Part shown: positions 6,980-59,705 of the stretch, piece after piece
Position numbering within the stretch: the first letter of the stretch is position 1
Layout: every line of letters begins with the position of its first letter
NCBI GenBank assembly: GCA_024679065.1
Contig: JAGIQG010000015.1
Location: 41,354,001-41,418,000 of the forward strand
Origin: Sphyrna mokarran
Lineage: Eukaryota
Reading direction: 5' to 3'
Length of the DNA stretch: 64,000 nucleotides
Translations under genes and position numbers: made by a program
Notes under the pieces: model-generated
Databases searched by the model: none
Seen by the model: only the letters and a program-made list of their open reading frames with translations
Told to the model about the DNA's origin: nothing

Positions 6980-7051
6980 AGCACAGTAAGAAATCTCTCA
7001 ACCCCGTTCTTACTGTGCTTATCCCAGTCCAATGCCGGCATCTCCACATCA
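6980..7051 (+). mobile_element. Minimal Penelope-like element end: short inverted arm plus tail
   Basis: agcacagtaagaa...ttcttactgtgct is an inverted repeat, followed by the tail atcccagtccaatgccggcatctccacatc, nearly identical to 18213-18240. Confidence 0.7.
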
Positions 7052-12590: not shown

Positions 12591-12870
12591 TTCACTCAAA
12601 AACTGAGCTCCAGGTCATTGCTGACTCCTTCTCCAAAGTGAGAAAATGGATCTTTCTTTAAACACCAAGAAAACTGAGGTCCTCTACCACATAGTTATCA
12701 CTGCAGAATGCCTCCCCCCATCAAGATCAACTGTGAGCTCCTGAAGAATGTGGACCATTTTCCATTTCTTGGGAACCTCCTCTTAATAATAGCAAACACT
12801 GACAACTAAAGCCATCATTGCTTCCAGTTCCGCATATGCCAACTGAGGAAATTAGTCTTTGAGGTGGTAT
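12585..12870 (+). mobile_element. RTE-clade LINE RT fragment
   Basis: Translates as LNTKKTEVLY...PPIKINCELLKNVDHFPFLG, the typical RTE segment after the YADD motif. Confidence 0.65.
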
Positions 12871-13103
12871 AGTTGATACAATAGTTTTGTATTTGTAGCT
12901 AATAATCAAGAAAAGTAACTGTTTCTGAATACAATTTTATTTTTAAAAAATCTAGTTCACTTTTGCTTTTGCCTAAAACTGGAGTTTTCCATTCTTGAGA
13001 AAAATGGAAAATGGCCCACATTCTTCAGGAGCTCGCTGTTGATCTTAATGGAGGGAGGCATTCTGCAGTGATAACTATGTGGTAGAGGACCTTCGTTTTC
13101 TTG
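12666..13103. repeat. Local inverted duplication, 102-bp arms at 12666-12767 and 13002-13103
   Basis: The arms are reverse complements with about 7 mismatches by manual alignment. Confidence 0.9.
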
Positions 13104-15834: not shown

Positions 15835-16560
15835 GTTAGATATCGGGTGTATTGTGTTCAACCCTGGATACTGCCCTTAGGAAAGATATATTGGCCTTGG
15901 AAGATGTTGCAAAGCAGACTTACCAGAATGATATCTTGACTAAAATAACTAAATTATGAGGGCAGATTACATAGATTATGAAATAAAAACAGAGAATGCT
16001 GGAAAAATTCAGCAGGTTTGGCAGCATCTATGGAGAAAGAAACCTTGACTTCAATATGACTCTTCAAATCTAGATCTAGATTTGAAAAAGAGTTCTATGG
16101 GACTCAAAGCATAAAGTTCTTTTCTGTCCTCACAAATGCTGCCAGACTTGTTGAGTTTTTTCAGCATTTCTGTTTTTATTTTAGATTTTCAGCATCCTCA
16201 GTATTTTGCTTTTATTGCTTAAACAAGCTTGAATTCTGTTGAGTATAAAAGATTATGGGGTTATATAATTGAGATGTTTAATAAAGAGAAACTATTTTCC
16301 AGTGTGAAATCCAAAACAAGTAGCATAACCTTAATATTGGAGCTTTATCTGTTAAAGGTAAAATTAGGAAGCATTATTTCATACAAAGAGTATTGGAAAT
16401 CTGAAATCCACTCAAAAAGCATTCAAGACAAGGATAGTTAACACTTCAAAGCTGTGTTTGTTAGATTTATGGCAGGCAGGATTTTGCAACATTGGCAGAA
16501 TAGTTCAACAATGATCTAATTGAATGGCAGCTCAGATTCAAGGGGCTGAAAGGTCTTTTT
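15835..16560 (+). mobile_element. CR1 LINE 3' fragment split by a palindromic element
   Basis: YCVQ..., RKDILALE and QSRLTRMI remnants; tail aggggctgaaaggtc. Confidence 0.6.
15981..16216. mobile_element. Palindromic (fold-back) Penelope-derived or MER6-like element
   Basis: aaataaaaacagagaatgctggaaaaattcagcaggtttggcagcatc pairs with atgctgccagacttgttgagttttttcagcatttctgtttttattt. A perfect 24-bp palindrome lies at the centre (16063-16086). Confidence 0.7.
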
Positions 16561-16727: not shown

Positions 16728-16900
16728 TTTACTAAGTGTGCAAAAACAGTTGTCAATATCTTTTGCCTGAAAATTTTATTTTATCTTTTTCTGATATCAA
16801 ATGGTAATCGTATTAAGATGAAGATTATGTCAATTCTGAACTGGTAAATTTGAAGTACCCATCAATTTTTTGCTATTTTGATAAAAATATGTCTTGTGAG
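16728..16900 (+). repeat. Unique 173-bp donor segment duplicated at 17931-18103
   Basis: 168/173 identical in direct orientation, no indels (manual alignment). Confidence 0.95.
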
Positions 16901-17089
16901 TACCAGCCTTCAAAAGAAACGGAATGGTTGGCAAATGAGTTGTTAAACCAACAAGAATAGTCATTAATAAAAATAGAATTTCAGAAGTTAAGTCTTTGTT
17001 TCCCTGATATTTTCTACTGAAGTTGCTAATTGATGCCTGGGCACGATTCCACAGGCATTGCTCAGCCTCCAGTACCTTGCTCAAGGAGC

Positions 17090-17135
17090 TAATCGTCACG
17101 TGAGCTGACGTAATGTTAGCCAATCATGAGGTGGA
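17090..17135. promoter_or_regulatory. Compact motif cluster: E-box, CRE/bZIP-like site, CCAAT box
   Basis: gtcacgtgagctgacgtaatgttagccaatca, with intact CpGs in a CpG-poor background. Confidence 0.35.
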
Positions 17136-17892
17136 TTTATAGCTGAGTGTTTTTCTTACATTAACCAAAGGAGTAGCAATTGAAATCCTGACCAACTTTT
17201 CCCTTTCATACCCTGATTTGCAGAGGGCAATTATAGCATCTTATTTCCATTTGTTAATTCAGCATAGGCCAGAAATTTAACTTAGGATCTTGTATTGTTC
17301 AGTCACACCATATCATTATCAGCTAAGGTAATGCTATTATTGGAGAGTTGAAAGTGAGAATGGCATTCAGTTTGTAGGTTACTCTTGTTGAGAATGCTTA
17401 TGGATTTATAGTAGTGAAAAAGTTTTTTAAATTTATTACAAACTTACAAAATAGGAGCAGGGATAGGCCATTTGGCTTCTTGAGCCTGTTCCACCATTTG
17501 AAAAGACTATTGGCTGATCTGATTGTAACCTCTACTTTCTTGTCCATCTCCCTCCTCCATATCCCTCGATTCTTGACTGACAACAGTCAATTTAACTATT
17601 TTATTTATACGTACAAATGGAAGTTGTGAAAAGCATTAAACAAATGCAAATCTTCCTTTATAACAAGGTTATTATTACAGTTTGATGCAACCACATACTT
17701 TATATTACAGACATCTGCATGCTTATTTTTATTTTTGTTTGTTTCTTATGAATAATTACACTAACACTCAGTCATGTATTGCCAGGTGTTTCAAAGCCTC
17801 CAGGCAATGATCTTTCACTGCTTTGAAGTTAAGAACTCAGTAAGAATTTAGCAACAGCAATTTTAAATCCAACCAATTTATTTGATAGTAAA

Positions 17893-17930
17893 TTTGTGAG
17901 CTTTCGACACTCTTATGCCTTCGTCAGGCA
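17893..17930 (-). ncRNA. Minimal hammerhead ribozyme motif, left arm
   Basis: Minus strand: CTGACGA-A-GGCAT-aaga-GTGTC-GAAA-GCTC-acaaa. The 5' strand of stem I is truncated by the captured DNA. Confidence 0.45.
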
Positions 17931-18104
17931 TTTGCTAAGCGTGCAAAAACAGTTGTCAATATCTTTTGCCTGAAAATTTTATTTTATTTTTTTCTGATAT
18001 CAAATGGTAATTGTATTAAGATGAAGATTATGTCAATTCTGAACTGGTAAATTTGAAGTACCCATCAATGTTTTGCTATTTTGATAAAAATATGTCTTGT
18101 GAGC

Positions 18105-18146
18105 ATTTGCCTGACGAAGGCACAAGAGTGTTGAAAGCTCACAAAT
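18105..18146 (+). ncRNA. Minimal type I hammerhead ribozyme motif, right arm
   Basis: ATTTG-c-CTGACGA-A-GGCAC-aaga-GTGTT-GAA-AGCT-C-a-CAAAT. It has the core boxes, stem II, a palindromic AGCT stem III and stem I ATTTG/CAAAT. Confidence 0.55.
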
Positions 18147-20902
18147 TTACTATCAAATAAATCGGTTGGATTTAAAATTGGTGTTGCTAAATTCTTACTG
18201 AGTTCTTACTACTCCAGTCCAATGCCGGCATCTCTACATCTTGAAGTTAAGACTCAGCATAAGAATTCTCAATATACCATTGTTTCCTGTTACAGATGCC
18301 AGTACACCAATGTTGAGTGTGTATACTTGAAAGTAATTTTTTTAAGCCACAGGACCTCATAACGTTATTGATAACATAATAAATAGTTGCTGCATCTAAC
18401 TGTAGACACTATTCTTTGCTGATACTGTTTTTTAAAAGTATTTAACTATTTCGAGATAAACAGATGATGCAGATTGTGAATTCCTTTGTTCAAAGCATCG
18501 TTCATTTTGAAGATTGTTTTTAAGTCACAGAAATCGAGACTGAAAAGTGTGAAATTTATGTAGTTGAAGAGCTCCCCAAGCCAATTCCTGTCAAGTGTTG
18601 AGTTGAAAAGAGAGTATAGGTCAGCAGTATGAGTGTGCAGAGAATATTTTCCTTCTATCTCCTCATCTTCACTATTGAAAACAACAATATTTTAAAAACA
18701 ATTACCCACCTCGTTCAATTTTTAAGAAATGACAGTTTCACTAAAGAGAAATGCTTATGAAATAATGATCAGATTTGTTAGTTTTATGGCAAGTAACCCC
18801 TTGTGTGTTAGTTGATTTTCTTTTGTTTGACACAGATCTTGGATATGGCTATTATTTGCATTGTGACGCTTTATCTGTTAATTTTCTGTTAGGTACACGT
18901 TCTTATCGTGTTAAGTGATTCCCTTCTTTTGTTTCACTCTTAATTTAATAGATGTCATAATTCCATGTATATTGTATATATTTTTAATGTTTTCCTCTTC
19001 CTTTTATAAAAGCTCCAGGAGGAATTCTGTGACTGTTCAAAACACATGACCAGAAAAGAATGTTCTGGATGAGTGTATCACAGGAATTTTAAATATATTT
19101 GACAGCTAGCTGAATTATAATTCGGCTTTTCCACATGTTAAAATCTTGCTTAGTTGCGTCTATTCAAGCTGAGCGTATTATATATGCTCGAGTGGCCATT
19201 TATTGAATGGAGGAGGAGGGTGTTTGTTGGGAGAGGTTTGAATGTCAGTGTGATGGGAGAGCATAAATGAAGGAGGCTGAAATATCAGCTCTCTGATGTT
19301 TCTGTGGCTGGTCATCAGCCTGAAGAATCTCAGCTGTTCCTACTCGTGTAAATCATGGGTATGGTTGCCTAGATACAGATGCATTTGATTAGCTTGTTCT
19401 TCCCTTGAGATTCTGCACCACCCTATTAATGGAAGACAGCAGCATTAGAAAGTGAGAAAAATGGCCTCCCATAAATGTATTTTTGTCTGCACTGAAACTG
19501 CAACAAGAATGAAAAACATTGACGTGCACCCCCAGGCTGTCTTTATTATTCTAGAGCTGACATTGAGCGTAAACAGAGGATGACTCATCAGTCAGACAAC
19601 AAATGTCACTGTCAGGCGTTATCTTTAACTGAGAATTCTAAACACCCACTTGTCATCTGCTGCACGTACAGATCTATGAATTCATTATCCTTCACCCTTG
19701 CATGGGGTGAACTGAGCCCAACAGGAGAATTGTTTAAAAAAATGCAGATTTGTTGTGGAGTAATTGCTGGCTGGTTTGAGGAAGAGGAAAATCTTTTTAG
19801 GTAAATCATGATCATCTGCACTAGGAGAGCACAATTTGCTTTGTAATGGAAAAATGTGCGGGAGTAGTGTGCACCACTGGTGTGCTTGTGAGACTGTATA
19901 AAGATGGAACACATGAATTACTGCAGCAGCTTTCATAATTCACACATTTTCTTCAAATAAAATGATCTTTGGTAACCTTCTGATTCCAGCTGCCTTTATT
20001 AAAAGAAAATGAAAAAACTGTGGAACAAAAGCTATGAGAGTTCAGTCCTTTGGGAGGCGAGATAGCTTTTTAAAACTGATAAAATAGCCAAAAAGAGTCC
20101 TGTTGTTAATTATGCAATGATGGGAATGCATTCAATTGTACGTGATCACGTTAAGCATTGCAGTAAAATATACAAAGGAAATAAATTTTATAAGATGCAA
20201 TAAGAAAATAATACACAGCTATATAATTGGATTCCATTCTGGAAAAAAATGTATGTCTTTAAATTATCAAGCTACTTAAAAGAAAACAGTTATCTTTCAA
20301 TTTTTACTCTTAACACTTCCCTCTTTATTTATGCTTCTCCTCAGTCTGAAGGAGTGAATAGCTCACTTGTTTCCAGGCTTTAGCCTCTCTTGAGATGGAG
20401 CTTGGCAGCACAGAAGAGGTGGCTTGCTCTCACTAGGTAGTTACCCCAAACAGTATATTCCATAGTATAAAGTCACATGTAAATCCATGTCGAACAACAA
20501 CATAATGGCTTTGAAAATCCAAAGGGCTGCTTCCTGGCACAAATATCAGGATGTTCCCACCCATGACTATCATAATTGACCCCAAGGTAATTTAAATTCT
20601 GTCATTTATTTCTCCCTGTGACTGGAAAAGAGAAGTTGGGATATAAATCCATTTTAGGTAGTAGCCTACAGCTGGTGCTAGTAATTGTCAGCATGTTTTA
20701 TTCTATTTTTCTCTCTTCACTTCAGAAAGTAGTTGCTCAAAAATATCCAGCCCATATCAGAGATCATTCGCCTTCAATTTTCAAGTTGTTTAGACTTTGT
20801 TGCTTTTAAAATTTTCTTCCAACTCGTATCCTAATTTCATGTATCCTGAAACAGCAGAAATGTGAAACTTATGCTGTACCACCAGTTGCCCATTCACTCA
20901 CT

Positions 20903-37991: not shown

Positions 37992-38148
37992 CTCTGGCAA
38001 CCCGCTGACTGAATCGTTTACAGCCTTTGTAGCCCCCTCTAGGGGTTCTGGATCAGCGGCTAGCAAAGGTAGTCCAGCTGTACAGAAAGCCACTGATGTG
38101 TTGCATGACCTTGGTAGACTGAAGAGAGAAATGCATGGAATTCTACAG
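37992..38148 (+). CDS. KIAA0586: Internal coding exon of TALPID3 (centrosomal/ciliogenesis protein)
   Basis: Acceptor tttgcttctttttag, donor CAG|gtaatg, 157 nt, phase 2 to phase 0. The peptide ...AVQKATDVLHDLGRLKREMHGILQ resembles human TALPID3 ...[24 protein letters not shown] as recalled from memory. Confidence 0.78.
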
Positions 38149-42424: not shown

Positions 42425-43563
42425 GTTTGTCTTTTGATTTGACTTAAATATTCACATTATGTTCAACTCTGGCAGCACACTGAGACAGGAATGAAATTCA
42501 TTTAAAAAAAAAACCTGGTCATAAGATATGACATTTTACTTATTTCTACCCTTGATTCCCTTTCTTTCAAATAGAGTGTGAATGCCAGTCAGAGCAACAA
42601 CCACAAGTCTATTGACTCGGCACCTCTGCAACATCATCTGGTGAGTTGCCATGGAGATTACTACCCTGTTCACCTCCACTGTACTCTCAATCCTGAATTC
42701 TTCCCCACCCCCAAGGTTTGTCACATTTCATACTGGTAGTTTTCCAGCACATTTTACCTTCTGTCTGCCACGTGAAGCACGATAAAATTACATCAAAGAA
42801 TTCTCATGATTGCTTTCAACACTTAGACAGTGTGCCACCATCATTTTTAACATTCAGCTGAAAAACAAGATAAAAAAATGGAAGCTGCTTGCTTTGAGGA
42901 GTGTACACATCTCTTCACTAATAACCTGCACTTTACGTTAATGCATATTGCTGATGTAAACAATCCAGTTAGTTTTTCAAGTAAAACAATCTTTTTTTTA
43001 TCACTTTGGCAATTCTGCCACCCACCCCCACCCCCCCACATCCTCAGCTTTCACTCTTTGTTGAGGTACAGTTCCACAAATAGCAACTATTCTCCAGTTT
43101 TTAAATCTTGATGGTGAAGGTTATTTAACTGAGTTGATGTGACCATTGAGTCTGATCATTCACTGTCCACGCATAGAAATTTCCAGCAAGGGTCATTGAC
43201 CTAGTTACAAATTTAATTGCTGATTGGGTTTGAAAGAACCAATGTTATAAATTATAGTTTTGTTTTAGTAGATTTAAATGTTTCTAAATCATGGATTCAT
43301 TTTATGTGAAGATGAGGGCTCTGAAAATTCAGAAGTATGTTGCAACCTGCAACATTTTTAGTTGGATTTGTGTTGGCAATCACAGATTGTAATATTTGAT
43401 TATCACAAGTACATAGTATTCTAGTGTAATTTGCAGGCATAAAATTACAGTTGCATCCAAATTTTAGAAGGGCATGATTTATATGTAGTTTCATAGAATG
43501 TACCACAAGCTTCTTTTCTGCCAAGGGAGTGCCAAAATCTACAGTAAGAATGCCAACCTTTAA

Positions 43564-48785: not shown

Positions 48786-48828
48786 TGGTTCACCTAGCTG
48801 TGCCAGTCCTGGAGGTCCAGATGCATCT

Positions 48829-49468
48829 AGAACATAGAACAATACAGCACAGAACAGGCCCTTCGGCCTTCGATGTTGTGCCGACCAAAATAAAAAGCAA
48901 TGCCCCTCCAAACTAAACCATTCCCTTCTCTTCCATATACTTATCAATTAACCTCTTAAACGCCACCAAACTTGGCGCATCTACAACAGCTGCAGGCAGG
49001 GCATTCCACTCCCTAATCACTCTTTGAGTAAAGAACCTACCTCTGATATCCGTCCTATAACTCATACCCCTTAATTTAAAGCTGTGTCCCCTCGTGCTAG
49101 CTTTCTCCATCCTAGGAAAAAGGCTATCACTGTCCACCCTATCTAAACCTCTAATCATCTTATATGCTTCAATAAGATCCCCTCTTAGCCGCCTCCTTTC
49201 TAACGAAAACAACCTCAAATCCTTCAACCTCTCTTCATAGGACCTGCCCTCCATACCAGGCAACATCCTGGTAAACCTCCTCTGTACCCTCTCCAATGCC
49301 TCCACATCTTTCTTATAATGTGGCGACCAGAACTGCACACAATACTCCAAGTGCGGCCGCACTAGAGTTTTGTACAGTTGCAACATGATGATGCGGCTCC
49401 TAAATTCAATCCCCCTACCAATAAAAGCTAAGACTCCATATGCCTTCTTAACAACTTTATCCACTTGA
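48829..49468 (-). mobile_element. Young 5'-truncated CR1 LINE (ORF2 C-terminus open)
   Basis: ORF 48913-49464 contains LYKTLVRPHLEYCVQFWSP...ERRRLRGDLIE...FFTQRV; (gttctat)n tail; catct near both flanks. Confidence 0.95.
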
Positions 49469-49797
49469 CTGCCTAGTCATCTGTCCCATAGTCAGCTGTG
49501 ATCATGCCCCATTACCTGTGATGCCCTTGAATGGCTGAGACCTGGAAGGCCCCGGCCAACTTACATATCACACTGATGTTTCGGTGCCACCCTATTCATC
49601 CAGCTGGCCCTGAGATGCCCCAGTGGGGGAATTGGAAGGTCTTGGGGTGTCCAGAGTCTCCTGAGTGCAAGGCCCCAGCATGGGTTCTCGCCCTTCCTCC
49701 TCCCTCAGGATGCCCAAAGGCCATGGGGACGCTCCATGGGATGCCAGGCAAGCTAGACTGAGCTCCAGAAGCTCCGGCGTTACCTGGCCCCACCCGA

Positions 49798-51399: not shown

Positions 51400-54300
51400 G
51401 AAGTAACCATATTTATAGCCCACCTGTTTCAATACCGCCACAACATTGGCATATATCTGACAATATGGAAAATTGTCTAGCTGTGTCTTACCCACAATAG
51501 CAGGATAAATCCAAGTCAGCCAATTACCACTCCATCATTGACTGCACATTTGTTGTCAGCAAATTATCTAAGGGGTTAGCGACAGTGTTATCAAGCAGAA
51601 CTTACTTAGCAGCAAATGTTTTACTACATATGAATAGGAGTAGGTCACTTGGTCCTTCAAGCCTCCATTGCTATTCAGTAAAATCATTGCTGGTCGATTG
51701 TAACTTCAACCCCACGTCCCTGAGTTTCACATATGTATTGGTGTTCAATTTGGGTTCTGCCAGGACCTGGCTTTAGTCTTTGTCTATGTTTGGATCAAGG
51801 CTGCAATGAAGCTGAATTCCAGTGAGATGAGTGACTGCCCTTGACAACAAGGCGGAATTTGGCCAAATGTGACATCATGGAGTCTCAGCAAAATCAAAAT
51901 AAATAGGAATCTGAGGGAAAACTTCATCTGTTGGATTCATACCTGGCGCAGAGGAAGATGTTTGCTGTTGTTGAAGGCCAATCATCTCAGCCCCAAAATG
52001 TTGCTGCCAGAATGCCTCAGGGTCGTGTCTTAGGCTCAGCCATCTGCAGCTGCTTCGTTAATGGTCTTCCATTGAAAAATCAGAAATGGGGATGTTCAGT
52101 GATGATTACTACTACTCATAATTCCTCAAACACTGAGCAAGACCTGCATACATGTAGCAAAACCCAGACCACATTCAGGCTGGCACTGGGAAGTGATGTG
52201 CATGTCATACAATGCCAGGTAATAACCATATCCAATAAGAGAGAATCTAACCAACTGATTGGCAGTGCTATTGCTGGATTCCCTGCCGTCAACATGCTGA
52301 GGAATTGAACTGTTCCAGCCATATAAAAATTGTGGCTGGAAGAGCAGTTCAGAGTGGCGAGGAACTCGAAGCCTGACCACCATCTTCAAGGCACAAGTCA
52401 GGAGTAAATTGGAAACTCTTCAGTTGTCTGCATGCATGCAGCTGCAACAACATTTACAAAATTTGACACCATTCAAGGCAATGCAACCCATTTGAATGCC
52501 ATGCCATGCACCACCTTAAACATTTAGAACATAGAACATTACAGCGCAGAACAGGCCCTTCGGCCTTCAATGTTGCGCCGACCAATTAAGAAAAAGCAAT
52601 GCCCCTCTCACCTAAACCATTCCCTTTTCATCCATAAACTTATCTACTAACCTCCTAAACGCCGCCAAACTTGGCACATCTACAACTGCAGCAGGCAGGG
52701 CATTCCATACCCTTACCACCGTCTGGGTAAAGAACCTATCTCTGACATCCGTCCTATAACCACCACCCCTTAATTTAAAGCTATGTCTCCTCGTGCTAGC
52801 TTTCTCCATCCTAGGAAAAAGGCTATCACTATCCACCCTATCTAAACCTCTAATCATCTTATATGTTTTGATCAGGTCCCCTCTTAGCCTCCTCCTTTCT
52901 AACGAAAACAACCTCCAATCCCTCAGCCTCTCCTCATAAGACCTGCCCTCCATACCAGGCAACATCCTGGTAAACCTCCTCTGTACCCTCTCCAATGCCT
53001 CCACATCTTTCTTATAATGTGGGGACCAGAACTGCACACCATACTCCAAGTGCGGCCGCACTAGAGATTTGTACAGTTGCAACATGACGTTGCGGCTCCG
53101 AAATTCAATCCCCCTACAATAAAAGCTAAGACTCCGTATGCCTTCTTAACAACCTTATCGACTTGATTGCCAACTTTCAGGGATCTATGCACATATACAC
53201 CAAGATCCCTCTGTTCATCAACACTATTAAGAGTCCTACCATTAGCCCTATACTCTACACATTTGTTACTCCTGCCAAAGTGAATTACCTCACACTTTTC
53301 CGCATTGAACTCCATTTGCCACCTCTCGGCCCAGCTCTGCAACTTGTCCAAGTCTCTCTGCAAACTATAACACCCCTCTTCACTATCTACCACTCCTCTG
53401 ACTTTGGTGTCATCCGCAAATTTACTAATCCATCCTTCAAAACCCTCATCCAGATCATTTATAAAAATTACAAACAGCAGGGGCCCCAAAACAAATATTT
53501 CTTGCTATCTCAGTGACCCAACCCTTGGGCTGCTTGTGGCCCAAACTGTCTTTCCTGTGACCCTCTCAGTTATCTGCCTCCCACTCATTTGTTGCTTCCC
53601 TCCTGCTCAATTGCCCTCTTGCTTTCGAGTTTCTTCATTGATCCATCTGCTTGCAACTCCCTTTGCTCCCTGTGGCTGCACGCTACACTCCTGAGCCCAT
53701 GCAAAGGTTTGGGAGAGGATAGCAGTGAGCAAAAAAGGACAGAGAACGGGACAGTTGAGAAGAAAGTGGCAAGCAAGAGTAGCAGTGAGCGGGTGGTAAG
53801 TAGAAAGAATTCGTAAGCTATTAAGCATTAGTAAGCTTTTCTAAGTTAGTCAGCCATTAAAGTGAGTAGGCTATTTAGATTTAGTAAGCTATTAAACACA
53901 ATAGAAACTGTAGACATGGAGTACTATATACAGTTACTGATATGTTCATCTTTCATAATTATTTTTTGTGTTTTACCAACCAAGGTACCTTTTTGAAGAA
54001 ATGAATTGTAATGAATCTATAAATATTTTTAAAATTTTGCTTGCAAATCAGTTAAGAATTTCCAATATCCAAATTGGCCATCACTATTTTGCTGGTCAAT
54101 AGCGTGATCTATGAGATGTACTGCAGCAACTCACTAAGGTTCTTTTTCAGCCTTATCAGTTTTCAAACTTGCAACCTGTACTACCTGGATAAGCAAGGGC
54201 AACAGATGCATGAGAACACCATCACTTGCAAGTTCTTCTCAAAATTACATTGCATCCTGACTTGATATTACATCATTATTGCTAGGCCAAACTCCTGTAA

Positions 54301-58139: not shown

Positions 58140-59705
58140 CATGTTGAACACTGAGGATACCAATGGAGCAGAATGTACTCCTCGTCGAGGACCTTAATGT
58201 GAGTTGTTCCTTAAGGACATAGTTACTAGACTGGATCTGTGTAGATGGTGAGAGAATCAATAAGCGGGAAAGACATATTTGACTTTATTTCACCAATGTG
58301 CCTGCCACAGATATATCTGTCCATGATCACAGCACAATCCCTTGTGGGCATTAAGTCCTGTCATCACTTTGAGCATATCTTTCGTCCTGTGGTATGGCAG
58401 TACTACAGTGCTAAATGGAAGAGATTCCAAACAGATTGAGCAACCTAAGACTGGGCAGCCATGAGGCACTGTGGGCCATCAGCAGTAGCAGAATTGTACT
58501 CAACCACAATCTCTAACCTTATGGCTTGGAATATTCCCCATTTTATCATTACCACCAAGTCAGAAGATCAACTCTGGTTCAATGAAGGATGCAGGAGCAT
58601 ATGCCAGGAGCAAAATCAGGCAAATCTAAAAATGAACTGTCAACCTGCTGAAGCTACAATACAGGACTACTTGTGTTCCAAGCTGCATAATCAGCAAGTG
58701 ACAGATGGAACAAAGCGATTCCACAATCAACCAGTCAGACCTAAGCTCTGCAGTTTTGCCACATTTAGTTGTGAATGGTGGTGGACAATTAACAACTCAT
58801 TGGAGGAAATGGCTCCTCAAATATCTCCATCCTCACTGATAGAGGGGCCCAGTACATCAGTGAAGAAGATGAGACTGAAGCATTTGTAATGATCTTTAGC
58901 CACAAGTTCCAAGTGGATGATCCATCTTGGCCTTCCCCAGAGATTCTCAGTATCTTCAGCAAATTAGATTCATTCTGCGATATCAAGAAATAGCTGAAGA
59001 CGCTTAATATTACAAATTCCTGGCAATACTACTGAAATGTGTCCTAGGACTTGCTGTGCCCCTCGCCAAGCTGTTCTAGTGCAGCCCCAGCACTGTCACC
59101 TACTTTACCCTAACTTCCTAGATATGTCCTGTTCACAAGAAAAAGAACAATTCCAACCTGGTCAGTTACTGACCCATCAATGTACTCTGGATCATCAATA
59201 ATGCGATAGAAGGGGTCATCATCAATTCAATTAAGTAACACTTACTTAGCAATAACTTGCTCACTGACACTCAGTTGAAGGTCACTCAACTCCTAATCTC
59301 ATTACAGTTTTGGTTCAACATCAGATTAAAGTCCAACAGGTTTATTTGGAATCACAAGCTTTGGGACCGCTGCTCCTTCATCAGGTAGTCCAACGCTAAC
59401 ATCACCTCAAGTCTTGGTTTGAACAAGGGACTGGGTAGCATTTGACCAAGTCTGGCAAAAGAAACCTTAGCAAATCTGTTATCAGTCAAATCACGGGAAA
59501 ATTCTGTGCTGGTTTATGTCATACTCAGCATAAAGGAAGATGGTTGTGGTTATTGGAGCTCAATCATCTCAGTTCCAGGAGATCCTCAGGGTAATGGCCA
59601 ACCATCTTCAGCTGCTTCATCAGTGTCCTTCTTTCCATCATAATGTTGCAAGTCAGGATGTTCTGCACCATTTGCAAGTCCTCAGATAGTAAACAGTCCC
59701 TGTCC
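58140..59705 (+). mobile_element. Old CR1/L2-clade LINE ORF2 remnant (endonuclease end to RT)
   Basis: LLVEDLN, DQLWFNEGCR, EWWWTI, LAVPLAKLF and CPVHKK motifs. Confidence 0.7.
59316..59410 (-). mobile_element. Penelope-like arm with decayed hammerhead, plus a short + strand tail
   Basis: Minus strand: cCTGATGAaggagcagcggtcccAAAGCTtgtgattccaaataaacctgttggactttaa. Followed by agtccaacgctaacatc; ttggtt on both flanks. Confidence 0.7.

Follow-up and report, generated by a model that had tools for sequence, protein, structure and literature searches.

How does a retroelement insertion come to enclose a copy of the DNA beside which it landed? This question is raised by a locus of Sphyrna mokarran (assembly GCA_024679065.1, contig JAGIQG010000015.1, positions 41,354,001–41,418,000 of the forward strand), at which a short Penelope-like element with two inverted, hammerhead-bearing arms (a foldback), in a probable intron of TALPID3 (KIAA0586), holds a direct copy of DNA lying about 1 kb upstream. 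We analyzed the whole stretch of 64,000 nucleotides, hereafter the window, in which all positions are counted. An original prediction, made by a model from the letters of the window, had read the structure as a single event in which the element's reverse transcriptase (RT) or a repair polymerase switched template during integration onto neighbouring DNA or host pre-mRNA. In the available parts of two reports on Penelope-like elements, the way in which integration is finished and the origin of the inverted structures are treated as unresolved (PMC11167929, PMC8557442). The locus is a well-resolved templated insertion in an ordinary Penelope-like foldback, and its main value is as a clue to the closing step of integration. 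In our reading, to which we give about an even chance, a short non-autonomous Penelope-like element integrated in one event, the closure of which involved a template switch, driven by microhomology, to genomic DNA nearby.

Structure of the insertion and its empty site

Comparison of the window with itself gave 17 repeat pairs. Of these, the donor (16728–16900) and its copy (17931–18103) are the sole direct repeat to reach both 100 bp and 95% identity; the two align without a gap (168 of 173 letters identical, blastn E 1.7e-80 within the window). The structure that holds the copy (Table 1) is bracketed by a 12-mer, which is not extended on either side. Since the last five letters of its left copy are also the first five of the left arm, the net insertion amounts to 418 bp. 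The arms differ from each other at 4 of 101 positions. The coordinates and counts given in the original prediction for arms, insert, tail and 12-mer were all reproduced on recomputation. Its distance of 1.2 kb to the donor holds from start to start, and 922 bp separate the end of the donor from the target site.

Four public sequencing runs of 22 (X1, X5, X6 and X10) were compared with the window at 85% likeness; X5 covers neither the donor nor the site, and X6 covers the donor without the site. The unoccupied site to be looked for in a relative is present in X10, where contig 15 (7 kb) matches 17469–17834 and then 18265–18700, and the 12 letters in between are as many as an empty site with a single copy of the target should have. 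The insertion therefore measures 418 bp and is younger than the split from X10 (5.0–5.5% divergence). In X1, possibly the window's own source, exact contigs cross both outer junctions (16738–17855 and 18215–18700), and two contigs meet and overlap at 16738–16767, the fork that is predicted by the first 31-mer common to donor and copy. No intermediate allele was seen in the four runs, X5 and X6 being without coverage of the site. Taken together, the reads do not contradict the structure, and the 418-bp insertion, with its target duplication, inverted arms, one-sided tail and copied host DNA, is real.

Source, direction and age of the copy

In X1 (18), X6 (14.5) and X10 (9–12), the depth over the donor is that of a single contig, and the donor is thus single-copy in three of the four runs, the fourth (X5) being the one without donor coverage. 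Element sequence does not flank it. At such depths, the 173-bp segment does not behave as a dispersed repeat.

Among the 40 differences listed for X6 (of 119), seven fall within the donor. The copy sides with the donor at six of these sites; the seventh is a CpG at 16809, which is also the fifth difference between donor and copy and at which the copy holds the decay letter. At the remaining four donor/copy differences, X6 equals the donor among the differences listed. Because the changes sit in the copy and X6 agrees with the donor, we infer that copying ran from the donor to the element, in this lineage.

The 8-nt repeat that brackets the insert (see below) suggests that the first of the five mismatches (17934) is probably element-derived, leaving 4/169 for the copy. 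This is similar to the 4/101 between the arms (Fisher p 0.48), and when CpG changes are set aside, the values are 3/169 for the copy and 2/101 for the arms. Both divergences lie below the 5.0–5.5% that separates the source organism from X6 or X10. Judged from its absence in one relative and from the low divergence of arms and copy, the insertion is young.

Junction sequences

The insert is bracketed by the 8-mer GCATTTGC at 17928–17935 and 18103–18110. The original prediction had set the letters catt apart between insert and right arm; the letters are present, but they are not a separate filler. Family sequence continues upstream of 18103 in 63 X1 contigs (loose ends of other copies), and catt contributes to helix I of the right-arm hammerhead motif, so that catt belongs to the element and the right arm starts at 18103. 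Of the five letters that follow the left arm, all agree with the start of the right arm and four with that of the donor. A 4/5 match is expected at a random site with P 0.023; the fifth pair would be a G-T wobble. When the 8-nt repeat is collapsed, a perfect arm-TT-arm hairpin results, with the 8-mer centred on its axis in a symmetric 3+2+3 arrangement.

At the right junction, the insert ends in ttgtgag, which also occurs in the arm at 17894–17900 as previously noticed, and the match continues for one more letter to 17901. The probability of such a match over all window positions is 0.027 for at least seven letters and 0.005 with the next letter fixed. It is possible that the last seven donor letters and the next letter record a short snap-back of the end of the complementary DNA (cDNA), which would create a match of this kind. 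Untemplated junction letters number zero, as every letter maps to the arm, the donor or the start of the right arm. A 6-bp hairpin (17915–17931), at whose base the left arm ends exactly, competes with the hammerhead fold and is a possible polymerase stop.

Target site

The resemblance of the target to the arm end of the element, another point of the original prediction, proved to be far beyond chance in the window. The target outscores all 152 other sites that share the same five first letters. Its likeness is exceptional only against the young arm, not against two older copies in the window. An origin of the target from an older, since decayed family copy was rejected, given that 355 and 91 of 3,654 background windows, respectively, score at least as high against those two copies. 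The likeness (18241–18267) is a hint, read from the letters, of self-like or RNA-assisted target choice.

Element family and hammerhead motif

The summed depth of the arms in X1 is 1.2–2.7 million against 18 for unique DNA, a ratio that is not a copy number. A total of 23,218 X1 contigs match the window, with their depth concentrated on the arms, and the family is also found in X5, X6 and X10; the arms are thus a very abundant dispersed family. Pattern scans for family copies gave 0 and 0 hits in metagenomes, 0 in viral sequences and 0 in prokaryote genomes.

An inverted truncated copy, a one-sided tail of 30–40 bp and a target duplication make up the standard Penelope-like insertion unit (PMC8557442, PMC3846280, PMC11167929, as far as their available parts describe it). 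The element shows the same features, namely a head-to-head 5'-truncated inverted repeat, a one-sided 32-bp tail and a target duplication, and the tail boundary is also an endpoint of other family copies. No Pfam match to an RT and GIY-YIG open reading frame was found among the 150 of 242 stop-free pieces of the window that were searched. Since a parent open reading frame could not be linked to the element, we call it Penelope-like from its anatomy, and the proposed foldback with minimal-hammerhead anatomy is borne out in its inverted arms, tail, target duplication and motif. A miniature inverted-repeat transposable element or other DNA transposon with cargo was rejected, because the repeat is followed by a tail at one terminus and not at the other, which makes the termini asymmetric.

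Each arm carries a putative minimal type I hammerhead, whose architecture matches that in the available part of PMC4209133. The closing pair of helix II is G-U in the right arm and G-C in the left arm, and neither motif copy is complete. The ribozyme would cut after 18140 in the right arm. The hammerhead is not the favoured fold, in that the lowest-energy predictions bury the core in another hairpin, and Rfam gave no hammerhead match at E up to 1 and none in the insertion; minimal hammerhead monomers are reported to be weak (PMC4209133, in part). An origin of the junction from ribozyme cuts is not supported, as both arms extend 33–38 nt beyond the predicted cut.

Elsewhere in the family, 10 of the 15 head-to-head joints listed (of 59) lie within 10 nt of the predicted cut on both sides, a count to which subfamily divergence and short contigs may contribute. 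Other family loci are likewise closed head to head with 1–33 filler letters, several of them patched from element sequence (12 of 76 matches listed). One of these fillers is a perfect palindrome of 14 letters.

Mechanism of integration and alternatives

We favour one-event template switching from the empty site, the single-copy donor, the derived copy, the similar divergences and the templated junctions. In keeping with a templated insertion, the source is unique and nearby, and the donor is intact and ancestral. The element enzyme would have made cuts with a 12-nt stagger in the two strands of a site that looks like the arm/tail boundary of the element. In line with the available part of PMC11167929, the bottom-strand end would then have primed a 138-nt cDNA including the tail, and the other side would have gained the 101-nt tail-less inverted arm by second priming or snap-back. 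The junction letters suggest that a first joining via three shared letters added five letters and failed; success at this point would have left a plain arm-TT-arm hairpin. Instead, the free end of the long cDNA, to which self-folding had possibly added six letters, may have annealed 934 nt from the break to the top strand of the upstream flank, which resection would most simply have laid bare, and have been extended there by about 170 nt. The cDNA would finally have dissociated and paired with the other end via 4/5 letters and a G-T wobble, and fill-in and ligation would yield a direct copy between two 8-nt repeats. A direct copy with its donor across the break is the arrangement expected when one end primes on the resected end opposite, as in the model for templated insertions in the available part of PMC12426944.

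Several points weigh against this reading. The symmetry of the 8-nt repeat (3+2+3) is more simply explained if the hairpin was completed first and then broke with a stagger. Copying about 170 nt from 0.9–1.1 kb away needs long resection or strand invasion, since polymerase-theta insertions mostly stay below 25 bp and L1 templates are mostly found no more than 15 bp from the site. The per-copy age estimate is lower for the copy (1.2%) than for the arms (2.0%), although the difference is not significant, and the four clear changes all fall in the copy and none in the donor (two-sided p 0.125), for which the reading gives no reason. Among the listed X1 contigs, none extends across the insert or across its right junction, and the X1 donor contig is unbroken at 16900, where a second fork is expected. 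The evidence also comes from one locus only.

The strongest competitor of one-event switching divides the history into two steps, namely the insertion of a plain foldback (101-bp arms, 2-nt loop) and a later central break with an 8-nt stagger, the repair of which copied the donor. The copied donor would then stabilize the hairpin, and the retroelement would supply only the fragile site. We consider this doubtful but worth keeping in view: it accounts directly for the perfect hairpin and for the repeat centred on its axis, and it agrees with a copy divergence nominally below that of the arms and with the observation that palindromes break centrally and are stabilized by asymmetry (PMC8701086, available part). 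The same source describes stabilization as mostly deletion, with spacer inclusion uncommon, whereas here the arms have lost no letter. The non-CpG divergences are equal, the 8-mer is the family's own sequence, so that the symmetry could arise during joining, and older foldbacks of the window (6980–7050, 15995–16168) retain a short or palindromic centre. The single event of the original prediction agrees with the similar divergences (p 0.48), and the junctions can be explained just as well by a plain hairpin that broke later.

Whether the template was DNA or RNA bears on the second half of that prediction. The unique local donor and the donor-to-element direction support a copying of local sequence into the element. 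An RNA template is a rival in which the element's RT left its own RNA for nascent TALPID3 pre-mRNA tethered at the locus, took about 170 nt from the intron and afterwards made the connection to the second arm. TALPID3 lies on the + strand, which is the strand that continued synthesis of the first cDNA would take as template; RNA transcribed 1 kb upstream could be near the break without resection; all four changes on the copy side suit an error-prone RT; and, in the available parts of the reports, R2 RTs switch templates (PMC11371274) and L1 forms chimeras with other RNAs (PMC13174262). The orientation of the insert does not separate RNA from DNA, because a resected left end exposes the same + strand. 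An RT that jumps between templates normally lands at an RNA 3' end, and nothing marks 16900 as such an end; the left junction requires DNA-type annealing in any case. We regard RNA templating as unlikely. A transfer of the whole arm-insert-arm unit on one chimeric RNA from elsewhere, or a dispersed 173-bp repeat, would have a parallel in the host DNA reported between Penelope repeats with target duplications in Adineta (PMC3846280, in part). It is nevertheless highly improbable, considering that the donor has single-contig depth in three runs and no flanking element sequence and that a unit from elsewhere must have landed by chance 1 kb from its own source. Equally hard to credit is an assembly artefact at the inverted repeat. 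The insert is thinly covered (depth 4.67 and 0 in its two bins, with no listed contig spanning it), and such structures trouble assemblers (PMC8557442, in part), but the five donor/copy differences form an ordered, derived pattern, the X1 contigs fork exactly where the copy predicts and cross both outer junctions without error, and the empty site yields a clean target duplication.

Comparison with known systems

Endonuclease-bearing Penelope-like units, as described in the available text, share with this locus the head-to-head arms, the 32-bp one-sided tail, the 12-bp duplication, the repeat-borne hammerhead and the palindromic junction; here, unlike in those units, an open reading frame is absent and neighbouring host DNA has been copied into the junction. 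For an anole element, both strands are reported to be cut and extended, with the tail lying between two RT start sites 30–40 nt apart (PMC11167929, in part). In Schistosoma, pairs of minimal hammerheads lie on opposite strands 100–700 bp apart (PMC4209133, in part), and the cores examined here, of the same architecture, are 184 bp apart on opposite strands. In Adineta vaga, unrelated host sequence is also framed by terminal repeats and a target duplication. That cargo lies between direct or solo repeats, is read as trans-mobilized and has no local source stated in the available part of PMC3846280, whereas the source here is 0.9–1.1 kb away.

Templated insertions are known from other retroelements. 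Among 3,598 tumour L1 insertions, 22 were templated, with inserts of less than 250 bp typically derived from within 15 bp of the site (10.1101/2024.08.27.596794); three cases come from L1 cell models (PMC11702581), and L1 foldback inversions of 52–220 bp have been described (PMC10191854), all according to the available parts of these reports. The likeness consists in the copying of less than 250 bp of nearby genomic DNA into a retrotransposition junction and in a twin-primed inverted structure; the L1 cases, however, are somatic or experimental with a template within 15 bp, and the present case is inherited, drawn from about 1 kb and found in a different class of retroelement. At R2 junctions, the end of the cDNA snaps back to itself or to DNA close by (PMC11371274, in part), and polymerase theta produces templated patchworks generally below 25 bp (PMC12426944, in part). 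Priming of a cDNA end on itself or on nearby DNA before joining, and a patchwork with 1–7 nt of microhomology, are common to these systems and the shark locus, whereas an insert of about 170 bp from 0.9–1.1 kb is unlike polymerase theta, with which only the 5- and 6-letter patches fit.

We found no literature on kilobase-distant local templates at Penelope foldbacks in a search outside of which most subscription journals lay, and the available parts of PMC13174262 and 10.64898/2026.07.22.740005 hold nothing direct on local capture. The novelty implied in the original prediction is reduced by these precedents, since L1 and R2 both provide local templated insertions and Adineta provides host DNA enclosed by Penelope repeats.

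Host gene and other features of the window

Exons were sought with homologues, and the search found no TALPID3 exon in 1–37991, before the one in Table 1. With no earlier exon in the window, the insertion probably sits in an intron of at least 38 kb before that exon; a weak candidate for the next exon lies near 42554–42736 (E 0.07–0.8). The insert is in the sense of the gene, which is on the + strand, and splice-like motifs within the insertion are at chance level. As the copied DNA is neither coding nor specially conserved, the insertion is probably a scar in the intron without effect on the host gene.

The window also holds older relatives and other repeats. A short foldback of the family at 6980–7050 has a 13-bp inverted stem, a loop of 14–16 letters, a right tail and a loose flanking repeat. 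The foldback at 15995–16168 belongs to another hammerhead-like family, with arms 79% identical and a perfect 24-bp palindrome in its centre (16063–16086); Rfam gave two weak microRNA-hairpin matches at 15976–16187. At 59310–59410, an older antisense arm with a decayed hammerhead core is immediately followed by a tail-like stub in the opposite orientation. An inverted 102-bp duplication (93%, 234 bp apart) at 12666–13103 has a spacer without another match in the window, and the duplicated fragment resembles a remnant of a long interspersed nuclear element (LINE) RT. Direct repeats of about 650 bp at 48824–49473 and 52521–53171 (91% identity, 3.7 kb apart) lie in a GC-richer part of the window and look derived from a long terminal repeat or a LINE.

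Table 1. Positions of the insertion, its donor and associated features in the window
Feature	Positions	Strand	Remarks
Donor, AT-rich intron DNA	16728–16900	+	27% GC; single-copy; 168/173 identical to insert
Left copy of target-site duplication, 12 bp	17823–17834	+	Last 5 letters common to arm; empty site in X10
Left arm, tail-less inverted copy of Penelope-like terminal repeat	17830–17930	-	97/101 identical to reversed 18108–18208
Left-arm putative minimal-hammerhead motif	17892–17930	-	Core and helix II intact; junction cuts helix I to 2 pairs
Left copy of 8-nt junction repeat	17928–17935	+	3 arm-end letters and 5 resembling right-arm start
Templated insert, direct copy of donor	17931–18103	+	Unambiguous part 17936–18102
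Insert end and next letter, possible snap-back microhomology	18097–18104	+	Equals arm letters 17894–17901, spanning predicted ribozyme cut
Right arm, element sense	18103–18208	+	Starts with right copy of 8-nt repeat (18103–18110)
Right-arm putative minimal-hammerhead motif	18103–18146	+	5-bp helix I, unpaired A, 5-bp helix II, palindromic loop III
One-sided tail, 32 bp	18209–18240	+	26/27 letters match older copy at 7024–7050
Right copy of target-site duplication	18241–18252	+	X1 contig 8 covers 18215–18700 with zero differences
Target DNA resembling arm/tail boundary of element	18248–18267	+	Only non-element site at that score among 127,954
TALPID3 (KIAA0586) exon	37992–38148	+	AG/GT ends

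Implications

A locally copied spacer is present in one of the four Penelope-type foldbacks of the window, and the spacers of four other inverted repeats examined gave no match elsewhere in the window at E 0.01. The window offers one possible instance of what the original prediction proposed as a local copy-and-bracket mechanism. A wider generalization, which we offer tentatively and think unlikely to hold in full, is that Penelope-like foldbacks pass through a long-lived two-ended break, during which a cDNA end searches kilobases of flank or nascent RNA, and that the family regularly (in at least 1 of 100 insertions) duplicates 0.1–2 kb of local host sequence in the germ line within inverted ribozyme-bearing arms. 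The choice of target would then be aided by element RNA that pairs with self-like sites.

The locus is an unusually complete record, in which the empty site, the direction of copying and a template for every junction letter are preserved. If regular capture is true, such spacers would form a genome-wide record of the closing step of Penelope integration. Should captures prove to recur, genome sequence alone would suffice to tell resection repair, an RT jump onto pre-mRNA and later hairpin breakage apart, by the side and distance at which the donors lie, their orientation and their age, and the captures would represent an added route of short local duplication in element-rich genomes.

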